Position numbers and translations under genes: made by a program. From a virus: 25,078 nt of DNA. The stretch lies in the UHGV virus genome UHGV-1753993; one strand, written 5' to 3'. A model generated the notes under the pieces. The model was not told where the DNA came from. It saw only the letters and a program-made list of their open reading frames with translations, and did not search any database. This document shows, in pieces, positions 37 to 22,713 of the stretch. How positions within the stretch are numbered: position 1 is the first letter of the stretch; each line of letters opens with the position of its first letter.

Positions 37-70
37 AAGAGCATCGGTTTTCAACCGATGCTCTTCTTTT
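37..70 (+). terminator. intrinsic-terminator-like hairpin (13-bp stem AAGAGCATCGGTT / AACCGATGCTCTT, 3-nt loop) followed by CTTTTT
   Basis: Perfect inverted repeat read directly from sequence, T-run at 66-70; presumably ends an upstream + strand gene lying outside the window. Confidence 0.5.
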
Positions 71-2574: not shown

Positions 2575-2615
2575 TTCTTCTACGAATGTAGGTCCAGTTT
2601 GGAGGGCTTGTTGTG

Positions 2616-2626
2616 CCCCCCCCCCC
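2616..2626. repeat. Homopolymer C11 (G11 on the minus-strand mRNA), with adjacent AGTT forming an inverted-repeat arm
   Basis: Read directly; partner arm AACTGGGGGGGG at 2914-2925. Confidence 0.9.
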
Positions 2627-2650
2627 AGTTACGAGGGATTTGCATATGAA

Positions 2651-2836
2651 TTGAGTTTTTGAAATGAGTTGAGTTTTGATGCAAGATGCAAAAACTTTTG
2701 AGTTTTGATGCAAGATGCAAAACTTTTGAGTTTTGATGCAAGATGCAAAACTTTTGAGTTTTGATGCAAGATGCAAAACAACTAAGATGTTGTTTTGATG
2801 CAAGATGCAAAACAACTAAGATGTTGTTTTGATATG
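2651..2836. repeat. Tandem direct-repeat array: 3 units of about 28 bp (TTTTGATGCAAGATGCAAAACTTTTGAG) and 2 units of 34 bp (..AAAACAACTAAGATGTTG), plus partial units
   Basis: Read directly; each unit contains the internal duplication GATGCAA-GATGCAA; no spacers, so not a CRISPR array. Confidence 0.9.
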
Positions 2837-2913
2837 TACATATGGGCAGTCAAAATATATAAACAAACAATTTAATTTTTGAAAAACTCATAAGTTTTAT
2901 GACATTCAAATTG

Positions 2914-2925
2914 AACTGGGGGGGG
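2914..2925. repeat. AACT + homopolymer G8 (2918-2925); inverted partner of 2616-2630
   Basis: Read directly. Confidence 0.85.
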
Positions 2926-3034
2926 TCACATATCTGGCTCAATCTCTTGTTATAACGTAGGTGACATTGCATTCGATGAAAAGTTTGCAGTGTTGCTTTC
3001 ATGTCACATTGCATAACTTAAAACATCGAAACAT

Positions 3035-3463
3035 ATGGCAGTTCAAACACGTTCGGTACTCAAAACGTACTTTGAAACCGGAGATAAACCCACCTCAGCA
3101 CAATTTGGCGACCTCATTGATAGTGCGTTGATGGCTCGATATATTTGGGAGACTGCATCAACTTTTGCAGCAATGGGCAGCACAGTATATATGTCAAATG
3201 CTACTGCAGCGCAAACAATAGATATGCAAGCAGTAGAACTTGGTGAAAGCTTTGTATTCAATAGAGTTGGCGAAGCAGCTGGAATTAATTTGCTGCCAAC
3301 ATTTTCTGGCAGTGGAATTTCAAGACGTTTTGCAGCTAACTATTATGATGTATCTGCAGATTCACCAGGTGTAATGTCATATGCTGTATTGATGACAAAT
3401 ATGAGTCAAGAATTGCTGACATTAAAAGTCGCTCTTATCAACCGCGCTTTATACAACAACTAG
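3035..3463 (+). CDS. Hypothetical protein with conserved N-terminus MAVQTR.VLKTYFETGDKPT.AQFGDLIDS (tandem paralog A)
   Basis: Track ORF with ATG start; N-terminal 30 aa nearly identical to 3541-3951 at protein level but diverged at DNA level. Confidence 0.7.
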   Translation: MAVQTRSVLKTYFETGDKPTSAQFGDLIDSALMARYIWETASTFAAMGSTVYMSNATAAQTIDMQAVELGESFVFNRVGEAAGINLLPTFSGSGISRRFAANYYDVSADSPGVMSYAVLMTNMSQELLTLKVALINRALYNN

Positions 3464-3540: not shown

Positions 3541-3951
3541 ATGGCTGTACAAACAAGAAATGTTCTCAAGACATATTTCGAGACAGGCGATAAGCCAACT
3601 GCTGCTCAATTTGGTGATTTGATTGATAGCATATTTGCTGCTAAGTTTATGATGGTATCAAGTACCAGCATTAATGCTGTGCCAAATACATTGTACAGCA
3701 TTAATGCTGGTACATCTACCGTGACAATTAATGCAAATGCGCTTGAACGCGGTGAATCATTTATAGTTGACCGTGGCACTAATGCAATTTATGCAAATGC
3801 TGACGTTGACTTTGTGCACAACAACATGGTTATGTACTCAAAAGGATATGCAAATGTCAGTGCGCCGCAAGATGATTGCATAATGTCGTACACTGCATTA
3901 CTGTGTAATGACTATGTGTTGCTTGTCAATAGGGCATACTATAGCATATAG
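3541..3951 (+). CDS. Hypothetical protein, tandem paralog B of 3035-3463
   Basis: Track ORF with ATG start; shared N-terminal domain. Confidence 0.7.
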   Translation: MAVQTRNVLKTYFETGDKPTAAQFGDLIDSIFAAKFMMVSSTSINAVPNTLYSINAGTSTVTINANALERGESFIVDRGTNAIYANADVDFVHNNMVMYSKGYANVSAPQDDCIMSYTALLCNDYVLLVNRAYYSI

Positions 3952-3975: not shown

Positions 3976-4010
3976 AAAAAATGCTCCACTGAGATTTCTC
4001 AGTGGAGCAT
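3976..4010. terminator. Terminator hairpin (14-bp stem ATGCTCCACTGAGA / TCTCAGTGGAGCAT) with A-run on the + side (T-run for the minus-strand transcript)
   Basis: Read directly; between convergent genes 3541-3951 (+) and 4036-4559 (-); stem core CTCCACTGAG is shared with the 1884-1924 terminator. Confidence 0.65.
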
Positions 4011-4035
4011 TGCTTATATGTGATGCATCTGTCAG

Positions 4036-5344: not shown

Positions 5345-5416
5345 AAATCAGTGCAAATTTGATAAATTTGTAGTACAATTATCATATATCAATATAGTAT
5401 ACAAACCTCTACAACA

Positions 5417-9553: not shown

Positions 9554-9572
9554 CAGTTGTAAGTTTATATGC

Positions 9573-10696
9573 ATGAGTCGCTACAAGCAAGATACGCCAT
9601 TAACTGGCGCAGCTATTGAGAAAAGAATTGCAGAACTTGAAGCTGAAAGAGATGAATTGTTAAGGGTGACAGAGAATGTTAGATTAGGCAAACATAAGAC
9701 AGCTCATAGTGAAATTGCACGAAAGTACAACTACAAAATTGGGTGCTTAAAAAAGTATGGGTTTGAAAATGCGATGAAATGCACTGCGCTAAAAAAATCA
9801 AGCAATCAATACCAGACGTGCAAATAATGACGTTGATGCAATGATTGCAAAAATGCAAGCAACAAACTTAAAACGTTATGGCCACGCAAATGGCAATGTA
9901 GAAAAAATTACTGCAACTAAAGTACAGCGATTTGGCAATGGCTATGGCAACAAAGCAAAGGCAATTGATACCAAAAAAACGTAAATATGGCAATGCATGG
10001 GGTGACCGCTCAAAAATCTGTGCAACAAATTTAGAACGTTATGGTTATGCAAATGGCAATGTTGCTAAAATGTGTAAAACTAAACGTGCACGATGGGGCA
10101 ACGCGTTTGGCAATTTGACTTTGATTCGTGAACGTTTAGCAGACTTGTATGGCGCTGTATGCCATTTTAGCGTGCGCTCAAAGTCAAAGCCATGTTCAAA
10201 GCTTGAGTTATTTGTGCATGATAAGATATTACATGCTCTTGGCATTAACTTTGAATATTCACATTTAATAGGTGGCAGATTGTATGATTTGCGATATAAT
10301 GACATAGTTATAGAAATTAGCCCAACAATATCGCACAATAGCACGTACAGTTTTGCATATCTAAATAATAGAACACATAATAATGTGCCAATGCATACGC
10401 ATTATCATTTTGATAAGACTCAACTTGCTCTCAAACATGGCTACATATGCATAACAATTTTTGACTGGCATAACTTAAACGACGTTGTGTCAATTGTTGG
10501 TATGCATTTAGCAAAGCTATCAATAAACTCAACAGACTTCGCACTCAATCCGCAGTTGTCAGATGACAAGTCAACAATTCGCAAACACTGGTGTCATTTG
10601 AAGACAAAAGAGCATATTGAAGACTGCGGACAAGATGAGCAAGAGATGATTGACGCTGGTTATGTTGCAGTGTACGATTGCGGTCATGCAAGATAA
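9573..10696 (+). CDS. Repeat-containing protein (five or more units of about 18 aa, T-x-[KL]-x-R-[YFW]-G-x-[AG]-x-G-[NV]), interrupted by +1 frame breaks at two A7 tracts
   Basis: Track ORFs 9573-9827 and 9932-10696 plus an unlisted 9841-9984 ORF; the amino-acid repeat continues across frames 0, 1 and 2, switching at A7 9791-9797 and A7 9973-9979. Confidence 0.5.
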
Positions 10697-10722
10697 GTGC
10701 AAATGATATTCGCATGTTGTAT

Positions 10723-10804
10723 CATATTCATATACAATATGAATATGCATGTTGCACAATACATATACAAATAACAAATAAACTTCTGAAGATTTTCTGA
10801 AGAG
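10723..10804 (+). promoter_or_regulatory. Upstream region of the SSB gene: hairpin (11-bp stem CATATTCATAT / ATATGAATATG, 10723-10747), TGTTGCACAAT motif (10750-10760), direct repeat TTCTGAAGA x2
   Basis: Read directly; function inferred from position only. Confidence 0.35.
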
Positions 10805-10847
10805 TTCATTTCAAACTTTTTGTTAAACTTTCTAAAATTTTATTGCG

Positions 10848-11981
10848 ATGTCACAAATTGAAAATGGACAGACCAGCAATCAGCCTCTGTCAATCTTTGA
10901 TGTCCAGCCGGACAATGTAGCAAGCTTTGCTAAGCCGGAACGTTCTGCAGGACCCGAGTTCTTTAATCCTAAGCCGCAGGATTCGCCAAAGGACAAAGTT
11001 TATCGTGCAGTTATTCGCGTATTGCCGAATTTAGCAGACCCAGCAGTACCGATTTCAATCGTTCGTTATTACTGGTTTGCAACTGGCCATAATCAGGGCT
11101 TCCGCTACAATTCGCCGAGCTCGCCTAATCCGCATCCTGAAAATCCGGAAAATTTGATGAAACCCTACGGTTGGTGTCCCATTTCGGCATTCTACTGGGA
11201 ACTCATCAATACCAAGGATGCTCAGCAGGAAGCACTTGCAAAGCGAGAGTTCAGTATGCAGAGTCAGTACACTTGCCTCGTGCAAATCAAGGCTGATTCA
11301 GTGCACCCTGAGAACGTTGGGAAAGTACTCCCATATCGACTCCCTGCTGCATTGTATAAAAGAATGCTGAGCTCAATGAAGCCGACTGACGAAGACATCC
11401 AGATGGGCGCTCAGCCTATGGACATGTTCCATCCTGTTAAGGGCCATGACATTCTCTTGAAGATTACGCTTAAAGACGTCAATGGCGTTGAAATGCGTGA
11501 CTACGAGACTTCGACGATTTCGCCCAACGTATCGTCGATGCTGCTTGCAGATGGCAGCCTTGTTGACCAGGCGAAGTATGACACTGACCCTGCATACAAG
11601 CAGCAAATCATGCAGCAGATTGTCGACATGCTCAAGGAGTACCCGAATGTCGAAAAGGAGTGGGGCTACCACGAAGCTTCTGATGACATCAAGCGTCAGG
11701 TTAAGATGCGCCTTGCTAACTACAAGGATGTGTCGGATATCTGGCCTGACATTGTCATCAATCCGTCAGCAGCTCAGCAGGCACAGACTACTCAGCCTGC
11801 ACCAGCAGCAGCTCCGGCAGCTGCGCCTGCTACTGCACCAGCAGCTCAGACAGCCATTGACCCGTTTGCAGCAGCTTCAGCACCTGCAGCAGAGCCTGTA
11901 CCTGCAGCAGCTCCAGCAGCAGCGCCTACAGCAGCAACGATGGATGCTGAAACTGAAGCATTCATCAATGGGCTCAAGTAG
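10848..11981 (+). CDS. T4 gp32-like single-stranded DNA-binding protein with a Pro/Ala-rich C-terminal linker
   Basis: Matches to T4 gp32 recalled from memory (AVIRVLPN vs AVIRFLPS; ENVGKVLPYR vs ENEGKVFKYR); distinct codon usage and higher GC than neighbours. Confidence 0.75.
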   Translation: MSQIENGQTSNQPLSIFDVQPDNVASFAKPERSAGPEFFNPKPQDSPKDKVYRAVIRVLPNLADPAVPISIVRYYWFATGHNQGFRYNSPSSPNPHPENPENLMKPYGWCPISAFYWELINTKDAQQEALAKREFSMQSQYTCLVQIKADSVHPENVGKVLPYRLPAALYKRMLSSMKPTDEDIQMGAQPMDMFHPVKGHDILLKITLKDVNGVEMRDYETSTISPNVSSMLLADGSLVDQAKYDTDPAYKQQIMQQIVDMLKEYPNVEKEWGYHEASDDIKRQVKMRLANYKDVSDIWPDIVINPSAAQQAQTTQPAPAAAPAAAPATAPAAQTAIDPFAAASAPAAEPVPAAAPAAAPTAATMDAETEAFINGLK

Positions 11982-12003
11982 CACAAGCGCATCAAAGATG
12001 CTC

Positions 12004-12041
12004 GAGGCTCAGACAGACATTGTTTGTCTGAGCCTCTTTTT
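12004..12041 (+). terminator. Intrinsic terminator: 12-bp stem GAGGCTCAGACA / TGTCTGAGCCTC, 9-nt loop, TTTTT
   Basis: Read directly; 23 nt after the SSB stop codon. Confidence 0.75.
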
Positions 12042-12059
12042 CATTTAACAAGTCATGTC

Positions 12060-13655
12060 ATGAGACTCAAAGTCATAGGCGATTTGCTTCAGATTGTCGA
12101 AGCAAATGATTTGGAAGCCAAGCAATTATACGCTGAAGCTACTGCAGAAGTGCCAAACTTTGTTGCAGCAGCAGTCAATAAGCGCAAAGGGCGCAAAACA
12201 GATTGGAATGGGCAAATTTGCTATGTGTTTAATGGCATATACCTACCATTTGGCTTATGGAAGCGTATTTGGGACTTACAACTGCGTAAGCCAATTCCAT
12301 ACGAAGTCAAGATTGAGGGCCTCATTGACAACTTTGACCGCATTGTGTCGCTTGAAGAGCTTGAGCAATGGTCAGAATGTCTTGATATGCCATTTGACAT
12401 GCGTGACGACCAGCTCAAGTTTATTTTGACTGCTTGCAAATTCAAGAAATGTTGTTTACGCCTTGCGACTTCTTATGGCAAAACAGCTCTTGTTTATGTA
12501 ATTAGTCGCTTCTTAAAAGATAGCAAGAGAATTAATGGCAAGACGCTTATGATTGTGCCCTCGGTGCATCTCGTGTCACAAGCGTTTGACGATATTGTTG
12601 TCAGCTATCAACAAAATGAGTCAGATTTAGCAAACAAGAACTACAAACTCTACAAAATCCATTCAGGTGTTCGCAATGAGTACAAAATGCAAGATGCAGA
12701 TATGGTTGTTGGCACGTATCAAAGTCTTGTCAACATGCCGGCAGATTTTTTCGAACAGTTTGACTTCATTGTAACTGATGAAGCTCATGGTGCGCCTGCA
12801 GCGTCAATTCGTGAAATCTTTAGTCATTGCACAAAAGCTCATTATCGTCTTGGCGTATCTGGTTCATTGCCGCTTGAACATACAGCAGCTCGTTTGACAA
12901 TTGAATCATACATTGGTCCAATACTGGGCACATTTGGCGTAGCTCAAGCACTTGAAAAGAACATTGTGTCTGACTTCGAAATCAAACGAGTAGTCATTGA
13001 GCATTCAGCAGAATATGATGCGCCGTTTGTGCAGTATCTTGAAGAGCATCCTGAAGTGTTTGATAACACTGCAAGACTGCTTCCAGCAGAACAACATCAT
13101 TGCATGAACTACGTCGATGCTAACAAGCTCATTGCAAAAATTATTTGTTCGCTTGACAAAAATGCTCTTGTGCTTTGCAAACGACGAGACCATGTGCAGA
13201 ACATCTATGATGCTTGTCAAACATTCATACAGCAGTCTGGTGTTGACAAGGTTGTTCACATCATTAGAGGTGATGTACCCTTGCATGAACGCAAAGACAT
13301 GCTTGCAATGATGGAAGCAGAGCCTGACAGACACATCATGATTGCAACAACTGGCACATTATCTACAGGTGTATCTGTGCATGCTTGGTTTTACGCTGCA
13401 TTCTTGATGATTGGCAAATCTGACAACGTAACATTGCAGTCAATTGGGCGACTGTTGCGTAAGCATCCACTTAAGCAGAAAGCAATCATTCTTGATATTG
13501 CGCATAAGCTTACAATTCATAGTGACACGCTTGTCAAGCTTCGCAAAGGCTACTGCTACTGCAATTATGATATGCAGCATTTTGCTGCTCGAAAACGAAT
13601 CTATGACGCTGAAAAGATGCCAGTAGATACAAATGTGCAAAAATTCAAGCTTTGA
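12060..13655 (+). CDS. uvsW: UvsW-like SF2 DNA helicase (Walker A TSYGKT, DEAH box VTDEAHG)
   Basis: Helicase motifs read directly; N-terminal W.G.I...LPFGL and later blocks (MIVPS..SQAFDDI, VVGTYQS, LGVSGSL, QSIGRLLRKH) match T4 UvsW as recalled; start re-set from track TTG 12024 to ATG 12060. Confidence 0.8.
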   Translation: MRLKVIGDLLQIVEANDLEAKQLYAEATAEVPNFVAAAVNKRKGRKTDWNGQICYVFNGIYLPFGLWKRIWDLQLRKPIPYEVKIEGLIDNFDRIVSLEELEQWSECLDMPFDMRDDQLKFILTACKFKKCCLRLATSYGKTALVYVISRFLKDSKRINGKTLMIVPSVHLVSQAFDDIVVSYQQNESDLANKNYKLYKIHSGVRNEYKMQDADMVVGTYQSLVNMPADFFEQFDFIVTDEAHGAPAASIREIFSHCTKAHYRLGVSGSLPLEHTAARLTIESYIGPILGTFGVAQALEKNIVSDFEIKRVVIEHSAEYDAPFVQYLEEHPEVFDNTARLLPAEQHHCMNYVDANKLIAKIICSLDKNALVLCKRRDHVQNIYDACQTFIQQSGVDKVVHIIRGDVPLHERKDMLAMMEAEPDRHIMIATTGTLSTGVSVHAWFYAAFLMIGKSDNVTLQSIGRLLRKHPLKQKAIILDIAHKLTIHSDTLVKLRKGYCYCNYDMQHFAARKRIYDAEKMPVDTNVQKFKL

Positions 13656-16528: not shown

Positions 16529-17074
16529 ATGGCAAAGAAAAATGCTGTTGCAGCAAAGCCTGCAACTGAACTCAAAGACATGACAATGGAGCAGCTGGAA
16601 GCACTCAAAAAGTCGCTCAGTGAAGCTCGAAAAGAACTCGAAGACAAATCGCAGTCAATGCAGATGATTGTCACGACTGATGGCGAATTGCTCAAGTTTG
16701 TTGCACGTAATGTGTGCGAACTTGTTTTGCCGCAACTTGAGTTTGATATGCGACTTATGCGTGATGTTGTCGCATTTGCTGCATGGGCTACGGACGCTGC
16801 AAAAGGACGACGCACCATGGGCATCTTCGAGTTCAAGTACATTGTTCGTGCTGTATCGACGACGAAGTTCAAGGGCGCTCAGGTTGCTGCAGCACTTGAT
16901 TCACTCAACAATCTGCTTGAGGCACCTGCAGCAGAAGTACAGAAGTTCGATGAGCAGTATCGTGAAAACGCCACTGCACTTGACGCATGCTTGCAGGAAA
17001 TTGACAAGCGCAAGCAAGCTGAGCTAGCTGAAAAGACTGCTGAAGCTGAATCGCAGGAAGCAGACGCAAACTAA
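16529..17074 (+). CDS. Hypothetical helical, acidic protein with G/C-ending codon usage
   Basis: Track ORF 16439-17074 re-set to ATG 16529 (MAKKNAVAAKPA); followed by a strong terminator. Confidence 0.6.
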   Translation: MAKKNAVAAKPATELKDMTMEQLEALKKSLSEARKELEDKSQSMQMIVTTDGELLKFVARNVCELVLPQLEFDMRLMRDVVAFAAWATDAAKGRRTMGIFEFKYIVRAVSTTKFKGAQVAAALDSLNNLLEAPAAEVQKFDEQYRENATALDACLQEIDKRKQAELAEKTAEAESQEADAN

Positions 17075-17119
17075 AATGACATTGACATAGTGTCATTGAT
17101 TTTAAGGGTTAGTAAAGTG

Positions 17120-17151
17120 CAAGCAGGCTGCAATTGCAGCCTGCTTGTTTT
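17120..17151 (+). terminator. Intrinsic terminator: 28-nt perfect palindrome CAAGCAGGCTGCAATTGCAGCCTGCTTG followed by TTTT
   Basis: Read directly. Confidence 0.75.
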
Positions 17152-17275
17152 GTGTACAATGACGATATTTTTAGCAACACAAAGTGCAAGTACGCACTTT
17201 ATGTTGTACAATGATGATATTTTAACAACATATGTTGTGCAAAAGCTCAATACATGTTGTACAATATATTCATAT
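17151..17275 (+). promoter_or_regulatory. Repeated 30-bp elements containing TGT(T)GTACAAT (17151-17180, 17203-17232, partial 17255-17275) upstream of gene 17295
   Basis: Direct repeats read directly; motif core TTGTACAA is palindromic; function inferred. Confidence 0.4.
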
Positions 17276-18681: not shown

Positions 18682-19407
18682 ATGAAATGGCTAACTTGGT
18701 CTGAAACAAAGCGGTTTCAACGAAATCTCATATATCTTAAAATGGCTGAGCTTTGGTCATTAAATTCACATGCTCAGCGAGCAAAAGTTGGCGCATTGCT
18801 TGTAAAAGATGGTTGCATAATTTCAGATGGCTATAATGGCATGCCAACTGGTATGTCAAATTGTTGCGAACATGATACTTCAGCAGGCATCAAAACCAAC
18901 AAAGAAGTTTTGCATGCAGAATCAAACGCATTGATGAAGCTGTGCAAATATGGCAATGCGACCGCAAATGACGCAGTGCTGTATGTAACATACAGTCCAT
19001 GCATTGATTGCGCAAAGCTTATTTTGCAAGCAGGCGTTAAGCAAGTGCATTTTGTTGACTTGTATCATCACATAGATGGCTTGCGACTACTTAGTAGTGC
19101 TGGCATTGAGTTATATTGGTACCCAAGAAGCGCAGCAGATTATGAGGTTGCATGCAATCAAGTAGACTTTGATGATGCATTTCTTGCAAAGTGTGTCAAT
19201 ATCGTAGCAGTTAGTGACAATGTAGATGACATTGTGCATTGCAATTATGTGATATGCAATCTTGACGCAGCATTGTCATATGAGAAGATGCCAATGTATG
19301 ACACGTCATATGGTGTCATTGCAAATCACATCATAGATGAAGTACAATATCAACATGTAATAGATAATTGCAAAGCATATGAGCAAACTCTTCATTTTGA
19401 AATTTGA
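18682..19407 (+). CDS. dCMP deaminase-like (zinc-dependent cytidine/deoxycytidylate deaminase fold)
   Basis: Signature HAESNAL ... PCIDCAKLI read directly. Confidence 0.7.
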   Translation: MKWLTWSETKRFQRNLIYLKMAELWSLNSHAQRAKVGALLVKDGCIISDGYNGMPTGMSNCCEHDTSAGIKTNKEVLHAESNALMKLCKYGNATANDAVLYVTYSPCIDCAKLILQAGVKQVHFVDLYHHIDGLRLLSSAGIELYWYPRSAADYEVACNQVDFDDAFLAKCVNIVAVSDNVDDIVHCNYVICNLDAALSYEKMPMYDTSYGVIANHIIDEVQYQHVIDNCKAYEQTLHFEI

Positions 19408-20542
19408 CACATGTGTGCGTTCAGACATACAGCATCTTAAACATACAGAACCCATCGCATTTGCAGGGTTTGTGCAGACAATGTTTGATGCTGTGTATGT
19501 GTTTGGTGACCCTGAGAACAAACATGCAATACTTGATGAGCTTGTGCATGATAACGTGCATATCATCAATAACATACATGCATGGCAAGATATGCTGAAG
19601 TGCACAAAATCAGACGATTGCGCAATATTCTGGCAGGGCTCAAAGGCTGCTCTTGAACATTGCTCAGAATTTCAGCAAGATGTTCTGTGGAATGCATTCA
19701 AAGCATGGTGTTTGTCAAATGCTCGCAAATTTACGCTAACAACTGATTTGCGATTTGATTTTGACAAAGAGTGCACATTGACAAAGCGATTGCACAACTA
19801 CAAAGAGTACTTAGAATCACAAAAAGACAACATTACACATCTGTGTCAACATAAAAATCTCAAGTATGCTTGGCTTGATGAGTCTCAATGTGTGTTTGCA
19901 CCATTGCAAATCATTGCAGCAGTCAATGCATTGAAGCTTCAATATATAGAGCCAAGATTGCTTAAACGACAAGCAACAATGCAAAATGCAATTGAAGCTC
20001 ATGTGCGTAGCTTTGCTGACATAAAGCAGCAATATGCATGCTGTGCAAGTTGTGCAGGTTTCACATATCTTGACGAGTATCGTAGAAGCGTGATTGAACA
20101 ATTTGTCATACATATGCGTGATACATGTCTCATAACATCGTATATTGATGACACAATTTTGTCTGCGGTTAAATCAGCAGCACCAAACTTTACACTTAAA
20201 TACAAAGTCGCATATGACGCAATGCCTCATGTAATATCGAGGTCCGCGTACAATCTTGTAGTTGGTGATTCATTGTATGTGCAAGCAGGCTTGCTGCCAA
20301 ATCGATGGGTTGAAGGCGTACTTGCAAATTGCTGCAACATACTTGTAGATTATAAGCCAATTACCCTATTTGCTGACATTGTAGGCTTCGATGACTACGC
20401 GACATTTGCAACACTTAATAGCAAAACATGCGTACGCACTGCGCCCACAAATTTTGATGATTGCAAACAAGCACAGCAAAAAGCTCTTGCAGCAATGATT
20501 GTGCAGTGTTACACTATTCTTGAACAAACATTCAAATCATGA
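19379..20542 (+). CDS. Hypothetical protein (387 aa)
   Basis: Track ORF with ATG start; overlaps the upstream gene by 29 nt. Confidence 0.6.
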   Translation: MSKLFILKFDTCVRSDIQHLKHTEPIAFAGFVQTMFDAVYVFGDPENKHAILDELVHDNVHIINNIHAWQDMLKCTKSDDCAIFWQGSKAALEHCSEFQQDVLWNAFKAWCLSNARKFTLTTDLRFDFDKECTLTKRLHNYKEYLESQKDNITHLCQHKNLKYAWLDESQCVFAPLQIIAAVNALKLQYIEPRLLKRQATMQNAIEAHVRSFADIKQQYACCASCAGFTYLDEYRRSVIEQFVIHMRDTCLITSYIDDTILSAVKSAAPNFTLKYKVAYDAMPHVISRSAYNLVVGDSLYVQAGLLPNRWVEGVLANCCNILVDYKPITLFADIVGFDDYATFATLNSKTCVRTAPTNFDDCKQAQQKALAAMIVQCYTILEQTFKS

Positions 20543-22095
20543 GAACACATATAATTACTCAAACTGGCTACATAGACTTTTTCAATTCATTGACTTGGAA
20601 AAGTGCAGCAATGTTTGAACGAGCAAACAAAGATGACTTATTCATTGTGGTAGGCTTTGTGCCACAGATGAAAGATGTCGCAGATTGCTTGACTACATCA
20701 GGTCATCATGTCAAATATGTTGATGTGTCAGATTTTGCTCAATGTCGCATTGCTGACATTATGAAGCGTCTTGATATGTCAATGACATCTTGCAATATGA
20801 GCTACATTGCAACATTTAATATATTCAATGGCGCATGCAATTCATTTCAGCAGGCAGAACTTGATACATTTTCTGCATATTGCAAGACATTTGGTACTGC
20901 ATCAGTCAAACGTGATTTGCCGCTAATTGACGCAGCAGGCTCAGTCTACAAAGCACTCATGTATGTAGTGTATGAGATGCTGTCAGTCATTATGCAGTAC
21001 AATATTGCATTGAATGCTCGCAAGACTAATGACAAACAACAAGGCACAGTCATAAACAACTTTGTCGAAGACCCATTGCAGCACAAGCTCAATTACATTG
21101 ACTATCGCTATTCAGGACCATATGAAAGCGCATTTAGTGCATCAAAGATATTCAAAGTGCAACATTGGTACTTTCATGATTGCAATAATGTCAAAAAGCT
21201 TGGTCTTGAATACAATTCTGCATATGTATATGATGTTACAGCAGAACAAGATGCTATTGCATATTATGGATGGTGTCCATCACAGCAATACTGGTATTTG
21301 CATGGCAAAACTTGGAATGATATTGAAGTAACATTCGATGACAAGCGACTGAATTTTGTATTTGCATTGACAAATACTTGGCGAGACAAAACTGAACGCA
21401 CAGAACTCATCAACAAACTCATGCATCTGCACAATCAAGATGCAATTGACAAGGGTATTGTGTTCAGATTTTTCAGCAGAGATAAACAACAGCAGTCAAT
21501 GTCAGACAAGTTGCTGCCATATGACACATACCTTGAACTCATCAAGCATAGCAGATTCACATTGATTGTGCCGTCATATGATGCAAACTGTTTTAGTTTG
21601 CGTAGATTCTGTGAAAGCATTGTGCTTGGCTGTGTTCCACTTGTGCACAACTCATGCAAACTCTATATGTTTGACAGATGGCCACAGTTCAAACAGTTTG
21701 TCATTAAGAAGCTCATGATTAGCGATGATGACTTGCAGCATCTTGAAGACATTGTTCAGCCATATAGACATACACAATTGTTAAAAGAGTTGTGGCACAC
21801 TGATTTCATTCAGCAATATACGGGTGACTTTGTGTATGATATTGCATTGCATCTTGCATATATCAATAAAGATGTGCCAATCAAGAAGTCTTGTGACAAT
21901 TGCGACAATACACTTTCACATGAGCGCTGTGTAATTTGTGAAGCAAACAACTTTATGAGTCATGCATGGTCATGTTCATATTGCAAGTTCTGCAAGTCTG
22001 ATATGTCATGCGCACTTGATGCAGACGATGGCTCAGCCGCATGTTGCAATGGTGACAGCTTTGTGTTGAAAGAGCCATTCGTAGAAGTGCAATGA
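20539..22095 (+). CDS. Putative glycosyltransferase (exostosin/GT47-like motif) with Cys-rich C-terminal tail
   Basis: Motif YDTYLELIKHSRFTLIVPSYDANCFSLRRFCESIVLGCVPLV resembles the F[CT]LxP.G...R..E.L..GC[IV]P signature; C-terminal CDNCDN..CVIC..CSYCKFC cluster; ATGA overlap at start. Confidence 0.6.
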   Translation: MRTHIITQTGYIDFFNSLTWKSAAMFERANKDDLFIVVGFVPQMKDVADCLTTSGHHVKYVDVSDFAQCRIADIMKRLDMSMTSCNMSYIATFNIFNGACNSFQQAELDTFSAYCKTFGTASVKRDLPLIDAAGSVYKALMYVVYEMLSVIMQYNIALNARKTNDKQQGTVINNFVEDPLQHKLNYIDYRYSGPYESAFSASKIFKVQHWYFHDCNNVKKLGLEYNSAYVYDVTAEQDAIAYYGWCPSQQYWYLHGKTWNDIEVTFDDKRLNFVFALTNTWRDKTERTELINKLMHLHNQDAIDKGIVFRFFSRDKQQQSMSDKLLPYDTYLELIKHSRFTLIVPSYDANCFSLRRFCESIVLGCVPLVHNSCKLYMFDRWPQFKQFVIKKLMISDDDLQHLEDIVQPYRHTQLLKELWHTDFIQQYTGDFVYDIALHLAYINKDVPIKKSCDNCDNTLSHERCVICEANNFMSHAWSCSYCKFCKSDMSCALDADDGSAACCNGDSFVLKEPFVEVQ

Positions 22096-22140: not shown

Positions 22141-22713
22141 ATGATAGCGATATTTGAAGGTGTAGAAGCTTCAGGCAAAACAACACTCATCAATGAATTG
22201 ATGAAGTGGCGCCCATGGTTTATCAATTGCAAACGAACATCTCGTTCTTGGTGGCAGCAGCATGAGTCAGGTGATGACCCAATGCCCGAACCTTGGGACC
22301 TCAATGAAGCGTTCTTTTATGATTGGCGCTTCTTCTTAGAGTTCATTGGAAATGACTCTCAAGGCTTTGGCAAAGCAACATTTTTGTGTGACCGTTCGTT
22401 CATCACACATCAAATCTTCAACACAACGCTTTACAAAGAGTTGCACACTGATAAGCATCAAGCATTCTTTGAAGCATATGAAAAGAAGCTTGCAACATTG
22501 CCGCACGTAGTGTTCTTATGCAAGCGTGATGTTGTGCCAGATTTTGTTGATAACTTTTGCGGTGATGTCAACATTGATGTCAGCAAACGCAATGAAATGA
22601 TTGCTGCATATGATGAGTGGCGAAAGAACTCACCATTGCATATTGTCGAAATCGACAACAATGCAAGTCTGCAAGACAATGTGCTAAAATGCTTAGCTGA
22701 ACTTGGTGCATGA
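22141..22713 (+). CDS. P-loop nucleoside-monophosphate kinase, thymidylate-kinase-like
   Basis: Walker A EGVEASGKTT at the N-terminus and a DRS motif (LCDRSF) by eye. Confidence 0.6.
   Translation: MIAIFEGVEASGKTTLINELMKWRPWFINCKRTSRSWWQQHESGDDPMPEPWDLNEAFFYDWRFFLEFIGNDSQGFGKATFLCDRSFITHQIFNTTLYKELHTDKHQAFFEAYEKKLATLPHVVFLCKRDVVPDFVDNFCGDVNIDVSKRNEMIAAYDEWRKNSPLHIVEIDNNASLQDNVLKCLAELGA

Follow-up and report, generated by a model that had tools for sequence, protein, structure and literature searches.

A codon-biased gp32-family SSB gene in an uncultured phage genome is probably native and shaped by codon selection

The window analysed here is the whole 25,078-nucleotide stretch of virus genome UHGV-1753993, which derives from an uncultured phage of ~175 kb that probably infects Bacteroidota. 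A gene at positions 10848..11981 on the plus strand (377 amino acids plus stop) encodes a gp32-family single-stranded DNA-binding protein (SSB) and is a compositional and codon outlier. On the same strand, it is preceded directly by a variable two-ORF cassette (9573..10696) and an A+T-rich intergenic region that carries no Shine-Dalgarno sequence (10697..10847), and is followed by an intrinsic terminator (12004..12046) and a DEAD/ResIII helicase gene (12060..13655; Pfam ResIII/DEAD, phrog_16), which is the syntenic partner of the SSB gene in all relatives. An overlapping +1-frame ORF (11482-12048) was rejected as a gene because its frame is closed in two of the related loci examined, L003 and L004.

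The SSB scores 59.3 bits with Pfam family PF08804 (gp32; cut-off 26.8 bits) in an alignment that spans positions 5-205 of the 208-position model, and it matches phrog_224 with an E-value of 1.9e-16. The family profile (alignment A1) matches the gp32 proteins of T4 (1gpc, 8gme) and RB69 (2a1k, 2atq) with E-values of ~1e-16. An AF2 model of moderate confidence (mean pLDDT 61) has significant Foldseek matches in the PDB solely to T4 and RB69 gp32 (E 1e-11 to 1e-8), with a TM-score of ~0.55 to 1gpc/gp32 when normalised to the target. Taken together, these results establish, at the level of sequence and modelled fold, that the SSB is a gp32-family ssDNA-binding protein. N-terminal residues 1-50 have a net charge of -2, lack a basic cluster, are predicted to be disordered up to residue 35 and include a conserved PLSIFDV motif. 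The folded OB-fold core (~aa 50-290; 10995..11717, plus strand) is modelled with pLDDT values mostly of 60-90. Only two Cys residues are present in the whole protein, and of the zinc-ligand positions of T4 gp32 only the Cys87 equivalent is retained (GWCP, C110); Ser replaces Cys90, and neither of the remaining positions holds His or Cys.

The C-terminal part reads ...QPAPAAAPAAAPATAPAAQTAIDPFAAASAPAAEPVPAAAPAAAPTAATMDAETEAFINGLK, in keeping with the Pro/Ala linker before a short C-terminal tail noted in a preliminary description of this DNA. An Ala/Pro/Gln-rich disordered linker (aa 305-363; 11760..11936, plus strand), with pLDDT below 50 at aa 306-365, contains cryptic tandem repeats that Tandem Repeats Finder (TRF) detects in the DNA with periods of 30, 18 and 9. 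Within it, an I-D-P-F-A motif (aa 337-341; 11856..11870, plus strand) includes residues P339 and F340, which are nearly invariant in alignment A1. Among 148 family proteins longer than 280 aa, only 10 have a (D/N)PF sequence in the tail; the carriers among the rows listed (P0001-P0007, P0010 and P0012) are the closest relatives, and the D-P-F motif is terminal or near-terminal in P0005-P0007. The protein ends in an amphipathic, mildly acidic helix, TMDAETEAFINGLK (aa 364-377; 11937..11978, plus strand; helix predicted at 363-376), in which T369 and F372 are nearly invariant in the same alignment. A linker with an acidic/hydrophobic tip is found across the 148 family members, and the linker plus terminal helix of the SSB is the usual gp32 tail architecture, equivalent to the T4 gp32 C-terminal domain. 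The C-terminal helix of T4 gp32 binds Dda helicase (PMC11551737). The helix of the phage SSB is a probable partner-docking tip, and linker and helix probably tether other replication proteins, for example the product of the adjacent helicase gene.

The hairpin and direct repeats that had been noted upstream of the gene are both present. A perfect 11-bp A+T-rich inverted repeat with a 3-nt loop (10723-10733/10737-10747) spans 10723-10747; it was ruled out as a conserved element, its sequence being different in L003 and even in L002, a relative whose SSB is 94% identical in amino acid sequence. A tandem direct repeat, TTCTGAAGATT / TTCTGAAGAGT, lies on the plus strand at 10784..10805, 43-64 nt 5' of the start codon. 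L001, L002 and L003 retain both copies, with a 23-nt spacing in L003, and L004 carries a different tandem repeat, of 13 nt, at the equivalent position. More generally, the proximal part of the intergenic region (from ~10770) is conserved out to L003, whereas the distal part is not. A candidate promoter motif, TGTTGYACAAT, is found at 10750..10760 (plus strand); exact copies start at 10750, 17202, 17255 and 22933 and variants at 5369 and 17149, all of them intergenic. Predicted RNA folding of the SSB leader is not significant (z -0.12), and the leader matches no Rfam family, T4-like pseudoknot or other known RNA. On the 3' side, the strong terminator of the preliminary description is a 15-bp stem with eight G-C pairs and a 3-nt loop (stem 12004-12036), followed by the T-run TTTTTCATTT. 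This stem is the longest in the window and is conserved in L001 and L003.

The GC content of the SSB gene is 0.504, the highest among the 34 ORFs of the window (window GC 0.404), which bears out its earlier designation as an outlier at ~50% GC. The neighbours had been put at ~35% GC, a figure that holds for the 600 nt immediately 5' of the gene (0.347-0.357) but not for the genes downstream (0.41-0.43). Raw GC3 is 0.493, compared with 0.34 expected from the SSB amino acids, and values equally high occur in two very short ORFs (0.53 and 0.50). When the amino-acid content and length of each gene are controlled, the SSB gene is the sole strong outlier among the 34 ORFs, with a GC3 z-score of +6.9 and a codon log-likelihood z-score of -6.0; all remaining genes of the window have |z| <= 3.3 by the same scoring. 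This per-gene comparison places the SSB gene outside the distribution of the other genes in the window. Among the three codons previously singled out as typical of the gene, CCG (13 codons; 0.33 of Pro versus 0.10 elsewhere) and TCG (9 codons; 0.36 of Ser versus 0.07 elsewhere) are enriched, whereas GCG is not (0.06 versus 0.10).

The excess of G+C has two independent causes, namely the amino acids of the tail and the synonymous codons of the core. Of the 73 residues of the tail (aa 305-377), 31 are Ala and 12 are Pro, and the tail is GC-rich because GCN and CCN codons raise GC whatever synonymous codon is used: its amino acids predict a GC of 0.567, which explains the 0.589 observed, and its codon use is ordinary, with a GC3 of only 0.274. 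Amino-acid composition (Ala/Pro) accounts for ~45% of the GC excess of the gene and for all of that in the tail. The synonymous shift is located in the core: over aa 2-304, GC3 reaches 0.545 where 0.367 is expected (z 7.1), and A at the third position is half as frequent as expected along the whole core (0.16 versus 0.33). The core avoids the A-ending codons CAA, AAA, ACA, CCA, TCA, AGA and ATA (the last being absent) and prefers CAG, AAG, ACT/ACG, CCG/CCT, TCG, CTC, CGT, ATC, TAC and TTC.

One explanation for this pattern is selection on the mRNA itself, by which fewer A-ending codons and higher G+C would make the message more structured or more stable, shield it from a ribonuclease that prefers A/U, or prevent the SSB from coating its own coding region. 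The halved third-position A is in line with this idea, as is the leader, which is A+T-rich, unstructured and equipped with conserved tandem repeats. Any autoregulation by the SSB would then be limited to this leader, as with T4 gene 32. An Akashi-type test comparing preferred codons at conserved and variable SSB residues gave a null result (odds ratio 0.91, z -0.33); selection for translational accuracy gains no support from it, and an equal bias at both classes of residue is what an mRNA-wide property should produce. However, the shift is codon-specific rather than a uniform rise in GC3. GCA and GAA are unchanged, GTA is likewise not avoided and AAT is increased, contrary to a simple rule of avoiding A or raising GC, and some changes are GC-neutral (ACA to ACT) or GC-lowering (AAC to AAT). 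In addition, the two-codon pyrimidine-ending families move toward C (TAC, TTC, ATC and GAC), as classical translational selection predicts, and no T4-like pseudoknot or Rfam element was found in the leader. We consider selection on the mRNA unlikely as the source of the bias, with host codon preferences bearing on it as well.

These preferences were approximated from the tuf loci of 80 genomes, located with a Bacteroides-like EF-Tu probe (92% identity to Phocaeicola), and shifts were sampled in 71 bacterial genomes. In 66 of these 71, the SSB shift points the same way as the difference between tuf and background, with a mean r of only 0.17-0.19, and this weak match also fits selection acting on the message. 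In agreement with Bacteroidota tuf shifts, the SSB gene ranks 4th of 23 phage genes (mean r 0.17). The best agreement with bacterial tuf shifts (r 0.42) belongs to a gene for a BACON-domain protein of virion type that shares the codon shift, which speaks against an mRNA-level cause. The best direct tuf matches to the SSB (r 0.47-0.58) are of mixed origin and do not point clearly to any taxon. Tuf genes of Prevotella (L033) and Bacteroides (L019) share AAG, CAG, CTC, ACT and partly CCG/CCT with the SSB, whereas its AAT, GGC, GCA and GAA choices mismatch otherwise similar Prevotella/Bacteroidaceae-like tuf genes (Asn, Gly and Ala differ). The likelihood measure used in this comparison is dominated by host GC. 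A host call from tuf codon shifts was dropped because the correlations are weak and not taxon-specific. A search of genome contigs with the SSB family profile gave no match, nor did exact-sequence searches with the genes at the window's ends. A scan for phage tRNA genes that covered L003, L004 and ~55 kb of this phage was likewise negative.

Comparison with relatives bears directly on the proposal of recent horizontal acquisition made in the preliminary description. Under such a reading, the donor would have had a higher GC, and the gene would not have had time to adopt the composition of its recipient. In support of such a transfer, the SSB gene is the strongest single compositional outlier in the window, a variable and possibly mobile cassette lies directly 5' of it, and its nucleotide identity to L002 is patchy in the 5' half (0.80-0.98 per 100 nt). 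The patchiness suggests, as far as sequence can tell, recombination among close relatives. Against transfer, the helicase gene also follows the SSB gene in L003, L004 and Chryseobacterium phage MA9V-2, so that relatives at 74%, 60% and 30% identity carry the gene in the same position and with the same helicase beside it. The SSB is 94, 74 and 60% identical in L002, L003 and L004, respectively, compared with 91-99, 63-73 and 30-53% for its neighbours; by this measure it diverges in step with them.

The orthologues also retain the bias. Each is a codon outlier of its own locus, with a GC3 z-score (z3) of +6.7 and a log-likelihood z-score (zLL) of -10.7 in L003 and corresponding values of +2.9 and -5.8 in L004, and their codon shift vectors correlate with that of the window SSB (r 0.88 and 0.50, respectively). 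The same codon is kept at 0.53 of synonymous sites versus 0.45 expected in L003, and at 0.46 versus 0.41 expected in L004. Synonymous sites are therefore nearly saturated between orthologues, yet the bias persists, and it does so in lineages whose background GC differs. This retention favours selection over recent transfer.

The SSB gene also carries the TGCA-rich, GATC-free DNA signature of its clade. Its core has 11 TGCA sites versus 5.4 +/- 1.4 in synonymous shuffles, which is twice the shuffle mean and 3.1x the base-composition expectation; GATC has zero occurrences in the whole window; and the dinucleotide ratios of the gene are attenuated but point in the same direction as those of the genome. 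The clade-wide enrichment of TGCA is itself odder than the codon bias of the SSB. Given the shared synteny, co-divergence, retained bias and oligonucleotide signature, and a shift that is no uniform rise in GC, recent horizontal acquisition appears largely refuted, and we assign it only a marginal probability.

A gene-specific neutral process might also be proposed, either GC-biased repair of frequent recombination or gene-conversion tracts initiated by the neighbouring endonuclease-like cassette, or an old, partly ameliorated transfer. The upstream cassette is indeed hypervariable: it is 51-57% identical in L002, versus 91-99% for all other genes, it is absent in L003, and positions 9555-10402 have no nucleotide match even in L001. 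The cassette as a whole aligns collinearly with one 447-aa paralogue, which adjoins a terminase-like gene and thus also neighbours an essential gene, and the mosaic identity to L002 in the 5' half of the SSB gene could be read in the same way. However, L003 lacks the cassette and has the strongest bias, the helicase gene directly 3' of the SSB gene (12060-13655) is not biased, and the two other biased genes described below lie 5 and 11 kb away without such a neighbour. The codon-specific changes, including those that leave GC unaltered or lower it, are likewise poorly explained by GC-biased repair. We therefore regard a neutral origin as highly improbable.

An SSB-like codon score is positive in only three of ~70 ORFs (~84 kb scored). 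The second of these genes, at 16529..17074 on the plus strand (score +0.134), encodes a 181-aa all-helical protein and had been described as similarly biased. This proved correct, with the bias weaker than in the SSB gene (GC3 z +2.6, log-likelihood z -2.6), and its L004 orthologue is a mild codon outlier too. The protein has no Pfam or PHROG family and only two homologues, and its all-helical model has no significant PDB match. The third is the BACON-domain gene (PF13004, 34 bits; score +0.108, GC3 0.478), which ends just left of the window (L006:9113-9727) and probably encodes a virion-surface protein. Four long-stem terminators occur in the window, and each of the three biased genes precedes one: besides that of the SSB gene, a 13-bp stem with eight G-C pairs followed by TTTG lies after gene 16529-17074 (17119..17152, plus strand), and a 13-bp stem lies after the BACON-domain gene (37..65, plus strand). 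Such terminators 3' of biased genes are no more than suggestive of high expression. The major capsid gene was not encountered in a walk through ~59 kb beyond the window, which yielded only baseplate, sigma-factor, tape-measure-like and terminase-like genes, none of them biased. On the strength of three genes, abundant proteins of this phage may share the bias.

The reading we prefer, with a probability of about 0.68, is that the SSB gene is native and that its core codon bias reflects sustained, expression-linked codon selection. The protein would be required in very large, stoichiometric amounts, and preferred codons may be read faster or more efficiently, such that long-term selection would maintain the preference in the core. 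Meanwhile, the rest of the genome would drift under a strong clade-specific pressure at the DNA level (TGCA/GCA-rich, CC/GG-poor). High expression of the SSB, and a link of its codons to tRNAs and translation, would be parts of this mechanism. Codon optimisation of a highly expressed gene, as offered in the preliminary description, is hence favoured by the comparative evidence, with the amendments that nearly half of the GC excess is due to amino acids and that the shift is codon-specific. The direction that the SSB shift shares with most of the sampled tuf shifts also speaks for this reading. Counting against selection on codons are the low strength of that tuf agreement, the null Akashi-type test and the surveyed baseplate, tape-measure-like and terminase genes, which are unbiased. 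The SSB gene of MA9V-2 and gene 32 of a T4-like phage are not codon outliers either, which means that strong bias is not general in the gp32 family.

Dividing a GC excess into amino-acid and synonymous parts, and then examining orthologues for the bias, separates selection from transfer without expression data. The most abundant proteins of the phage are candidate products of the three codon-shifted genes, whose preferred codons could aid host assignment. The SSB itself widens the range of gp32 proteins: it is a divergent member that has DPF motifs in an Ala/Pro linker but neither a zinc site nor a basic N-terminus, and it comes from large phages, probably of Bacteroidota, that as a group are poorly known.

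A published precedent for the preferred reading is that, in many phages, the genes for head and tail proteins favour the codons preferred by the host (Lucks et al. 2008, PMC2266997). As in that study, few genes here depart from the bulk codon usage after amino-acid control; in contrast, the strongest case is a replication protein rather than a head or tail protein, and its adaptation to host-preferred codons is hypothetical.

T4 and RB69 gp32 have in common with the phage SSB the PF08804 domain and OB-fold core, as recovered by sequence profile and fold search, at ~25% identity. T4 gp32 has the same three-part layout, in which the core lies between a flexible N-terminus and a disordered C-terminal region that bears a partner-binding helix (PMC11551737), and gene 32 of T4 and RB69 likewise resides among replication genes, with a helicase-related neighbour and a strong hairpin that ends the transcript. 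In contrast, the SSB keeps one of the four zinc ligands of T4 gp32 (His64, Cys77, Cys87 and Cys90), a site that is a feature of the T4 protein and is not required for Pfam membership. The basic N-terminal domain of T4 gp32 (residues 1-20, KRKST), which serves cooperative binding, has no counterpart, and PLSIFDV is found there instead. The tail is Ser/Asp-rich in T4 gp32 but Ala/Pro/Gln-rich with an internal DPF motif in the phage SSB, and the pseudoknot-type leader of T4 has no counterpart upstream of the SSB gene, where there is neither an Rfam match nor a significant fold.

The closest cultured relatives are the SSBs of Chryseobacterium phages MA9V-1 and MA9V-2, with 30% identity over 76% of the protein. 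In MA9V-2, the SSB gene is followed by a DEAD/DEAH helicase gene, the same order as here, and the SSB has a similar low-complexity, A/P/Q/V-rich C-terminal tail. Unlike the gene described here, the MA9V-2 SSB gene is no codon or GC3 outlier in its own genome (z3 -1.7, zLL +1.2), and that genome lacks a strong TGCA/GATC signature. Gene 32 of one T4-like phage is not a codon outlier either, and these two cases rule out that gp32 genes are codon outliers in general.

SSBs of the E. coli type are homotetrameric and carry a disordered linker plus a C-terminal ...DDDIPF tip. They belong to a different OB-fold family, and no sequence relationship to the phage SSB was detected. By analogy, the (D/N)PF motifs of the phage protein might mimic the D-I-P-F tip of host SSB and recruit its clients, in addition to the helicase bound through the C-terminal helix, with the codon bias providing the dosage to out-compete host SSB; we regard this scenario as improbable. 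The D-I-P-F tip resembles the D-P-F motif of the phage SSB relatives, and both types of protein appear to follow a shared principle in which an OB-fold binder is joined by a Pro/Gln/Ala-rich disordered linker to short docking motifs.

The gp32-like single-stranded-DNA-binding protein gene (SSB; 10848-11981, plus strand), which encodes a 377-amino-acid product, had been described as about 50% GC among neighbours of about 35%. Its measured GC content is 0.504, compared with 0.404 for the window; the 35% value holds for the 600 nt just upstream only and does not represent the background otherwise. For every ORF, an expected GC3 was derived from its amino-acid sequence together with codon usage in the remaining genes. 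By this per-gene comparison, SSB lies outside the distribution as the sole strong outlier among 34 ORFs, with a GC3 of about 0.49 versus an expected 0.340 (z +6.9) and a codon log-likelihood z of -6.0. The outlier is real and strong, and it has an ordinary explanation: G+C is raised by an Ala/Pro tail and by codon usage that selection keeps in place.

These two causes, tail amino acids and core codons, are cleanly separable. Of the 73 residues in the tail (305-377), 31 are Ala and 12 are Pro. The GC content of the tail is 0.589, with 0.567 predicted by amino acids alone; codon use there is ordinary, with a GC3 of only 0.274. The core (residues 2-304) has a GC3 of 0.545 versus an expected 0.367 (z 7.1), and its third codon positions carry A half as often (0.16 versus 0.33). 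For SSB overall, amino-acid composition lifts expected GC from 0.404 to approximately 0.447-0.449, and the remainder reflects synonymous choice. This shift is codon-specific. Codons used more often in SSB than in the rest of the genome include CAG (0.88 versus 0.35), AAG (0.77 versus 0.40), TAC (0.67 versus 0.35), ATC (0.50 versus 0.23), TCG (0.36 versus 0.07) and CTC (0.35 versus 0.09), while ATA (0 versus 0.25), ACA (0.12 versus 0.58) and CCA (0.15 versus 0.57) are used less. The fractions of GCA and GAA are the same as elsewhere, and AAT is higher in SSB. CCG, TCG and GCG had all been named as favoured, but only the first two are enriched.

The bulk of the genome, from which SSB departs, is itself of extreme composition. 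TGCA occurs at 445 sites in the 25-kb window (17.7 per kb), 4.9-fold above the base-composition expectation, and is enriched 4.5- to 6.1-fold across the clade, both in relatives whose SSBs are 94, 74 and 60% identical (L002, L003 and L004) and in loci elsewhere in the same phage (L009, L011 and L095). The ratio is 2.2 in the Chryseobacterium phage MA9V-2 and about 0.5-1.4 in a T4-like phage, a relative with a 28%-identical SSB (L005) and the Bacteroidales loci checked. Density is equal in intergenic DNA (17.0 per kb), all three codon phases carry TGCA, and bulk genes hold 356 sites versus 244.5 +/- 9.1 in synonymous shuffles (12 sd above). Window dinucleotide ratios are near 1.7 for CA/TG and GC, and 0.5 for CC/GG. 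The NCA-codon preference of bulk genes is part of this TGCA-type signature. TGCA could be a target of modification or a site bound by a protein, or its excess could come from mutational bias. The SSB core and a BACON-domain gene adjoining the window show an attenuated form of the signature.

Recent transfer, which the preliminary description offered as a source of the odd composition, is rejected on several grounds. In L003 and L004, SSB keeps its position upstream of the same helicase, and the SSB-helicase pair is retained even in MA9V-2. Its identities of 94, 74 and 60% to L002, L003 and L004 are in step with those of its neighbours (91-99, 63-73 and 30-53%). SSB is also the codon outlier of its own locus in L003 (GC3 z +6.7, codon log-likelihood z -10.7) and in L004 (+2.9 and -5.8), and the codon shifts of these SSBs correlate with that of the window gene (r 0.88 and 0.50). 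Moreover, the SSB core carries 11 TGCA sites versus 5.4 +/- 1.4 in synonymous shuffles, the enrichment peculiar to this clade, and SSB shares in the complete lack of GATC across the window. Identical-residue sites use the same codon between lineages in 53% (45% by chance) and 46% (41% by chance) of cases, such that synonymous sites are almost randomised. A residue of transfer would decay at an equal pace to these sites, and therefore the SSB bias is being maintained.

Some further compositional features were observed. The absence of GATC compares with approximately 90 expected sites, and there are 0-1 per 20 kb elsewhere in the phage (L009, L011 and L095); L003 does not avoid it (18 sites). 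CTAG occurs at three sites in the window (0.03-fold), with CCGG and GGCC likewise depleted. The pattern looks like restriction-site avoidance that varies by lineage. Within the SSB 5' half (10901-11400), nucleotide identity to L002 is patchy, at 0.80-0.86 in some 100-nt windows and 0.95-0.99 in others, which suggests recombination tracts among close relatives.

We considered whether the bias is a general trait of gp32 genes. This is ruled out by gene 32 of a T4-like phage (GC3 z +1.6, codon log-likelihood z -0.8) and the MA9V-2 SSB (GC3 z -1.7), neither of which is an outlier, and by L005, in which the raised GC is wholly accounted for by amino acids. The strong bias is therefore clade-specific.

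Approximately 70 ORFs, from the window plus about 59 kb fetched from both sides, were scored for SSB-likeness (the log-likelihood ratio of SSB versus bulk codon usage). Only three are positive: SSB (+0.198), gene 16529-17074 (+0.134), for which a similar bias had been proposed, and the BACON-domain gene (+0.108), which ends 14 nt before the window. Three of the four terminators in the window with stems of at least 13 bp directly follow these genes (37-65 after the BACON-domain gene, 12004-12036 after SSB and 17119-17148 after gene 16529-17074). Judged from this sequence pattern, the arrangement fits discrete, strongly expressed units. The L004 orthologue of gene 16529-17074 is a mild outlier as well. 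The gene's product (181 amino acids) is all-helical, with a high content of Ala, Glu and Lys, and may be abundant; it yielded no family or fold match, and only two homologues among 5.8 billion proteins.

The window comes from an uncultured phage of approximately 175 kb, for which IMG/VR includes contigs at protein identities of 99% and 94%. Among cultured phages, the jumbo Chryseobacterium phages MA9V-1 and MA9V-2 come closest (30% identity). A Bacteroidota host is likely, though not proven, because Shine-Dalgarno sequences are absent from all genes in the window, a BACON-domain gene adjoins it, and CTAG is nearly missing, as in Bacteroidales genomes.

As a test of host codon preference, tuf loci were taken from 80 genomes, mostly Bacteroidota. 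In 66 of 71 genomes, the SSB shift and the tuf-minus-background shift agree in sign, with a weak correlation (mean r 0.17-0.19) that ranks SSB fourth among 23 phage genes (BACON-domain gene, 0.42; gene 16529-17074, 0.23). Direct comparison with tuf gives r values up to 0.58, from mixed genomes without a clear taxon. AAG, CAG, CTC, ACT and partly CCG/CCT are common to the SSB core and the tuf genes of one Prevotella (L033) and one Bacteroides (L019) genome (r ~0.47-0.49), but the Asn, Gly and Ala codons differ. The shift takes in near-universal preferences (C-ending Tyr, Phe, Ile and Asp codons, CGT, and no ATA or AGA), as translational selection predicts. In an Akashi-type test on SSB, preferred codons were not in excess at conserved residues. 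Any selection on decoding would favour its speed or efficiency, not its accuracy. An mRNA-level explanation of the codon shift is a live rival.

The upstream hairpin and direct repeats, the terminator and the Pro/Ala tail were all found as first described. Conservation of the 11-bp hairpin (10723-10747) does not extend even to the 94% relative. That of the TTCTGAAG tandem repeat and an A+T-rich leader reaches as far as L003, L004 has another tandem repeat at that position, and the terminator stem is conserved. No significant fold or Rfam match was found for the leader. Two ORFs immediately upstream of SSB (9573-10696) align to the N- and C-terminal parts of a single 447-amino-acid paralogue (L095:5126-6469), which adjoins a terminase-like gene. 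This cassette has no family match. L003 lacks segment 9555-10402, and not even the 99%-identical relative offers a nucleotide match to it. The cassette has the look of a mobile element, possibly homing-endonuclease-like, that is split here.

Other elements of the window were also noted. An intergenic motif, TGTTGYACAAT, often preceded by GTGCAAA, recurs at 5369, 10750, 17149, 17202, 17255 and 22933. It is a candidate promoter element of the phage, whose genes include one for a sigma-factor-like protein (L009:2530-3423). Clustered genes at 18682-19407, 20539-22095 and 22141-22713 encode a dCMP deaminase, a weak GT47-like glycosyltransferase match and a P-loop nucleotide-kinase-like ORF, labelled from N-terminal sequence only. 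Together these genes may constitute a module for DNA base modification, with a possible connection to the TGCA signature. A 460-nt stretch (2575-3034) is without a convincing gene, and its minus-strand ORF translates to repeated CILHQN-type peptides, suggestive of direct DNA repeats. The adjacent genes 3035-3463 and 3541-3951 have near-identical N-termini, MAVQTR(S/N)VLKTYFETGDKPT(S/A)AQFGDLIDS, and look like a tandem fibre- or receptor-binding-type pair with swapped C-termini; a bidirectional long-stem terminator (3980-4011) follows them.

SSB is a native gp32-family gene. Its product matches Pfam gp32 (59.3 bits, cut-off 26.8) and PHROG 224 (single-strand DNA binding protein), and a profile of SSB and nine relatives matched the T4 and RB69 gp32 chains in a PDB search at E ~1e-16. 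In the AlphaFold model the core is moderately confident, residues 1-35 and 306-365 are disordered, and residues 363-376 form a helix; a fold search with this model returned gp32 structures only. Exhaustive search of 1.84 billion representative proteins yielded 252 relatives. In 148 of these the protein closes with a linker of low complexity, which is acidic or rich in Ala, Pro and Gln and often consists of tandem peptide repeats, and then with an acidic/hydrophobic tip resembling DDLLNDL; in the window SSB this tip is TMDAETEAFINGLK. An internal IDPFA motif is present in only 10 of the 148, and the nine visible in the output are the closest relatives. The linker DNA of SSB consists of cryptic tandem repeats. 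Compared with T4 gp32, SSB retains one of the four zinc ligands and is without the basic N-terminal motif. The C-terminal helix of T4 gp32 (residues 248-270) docks onto Dda helicase (PMC11551737), and by analogy the conserved C-terminal helix of SSB may dock onto the adjacent helicase.
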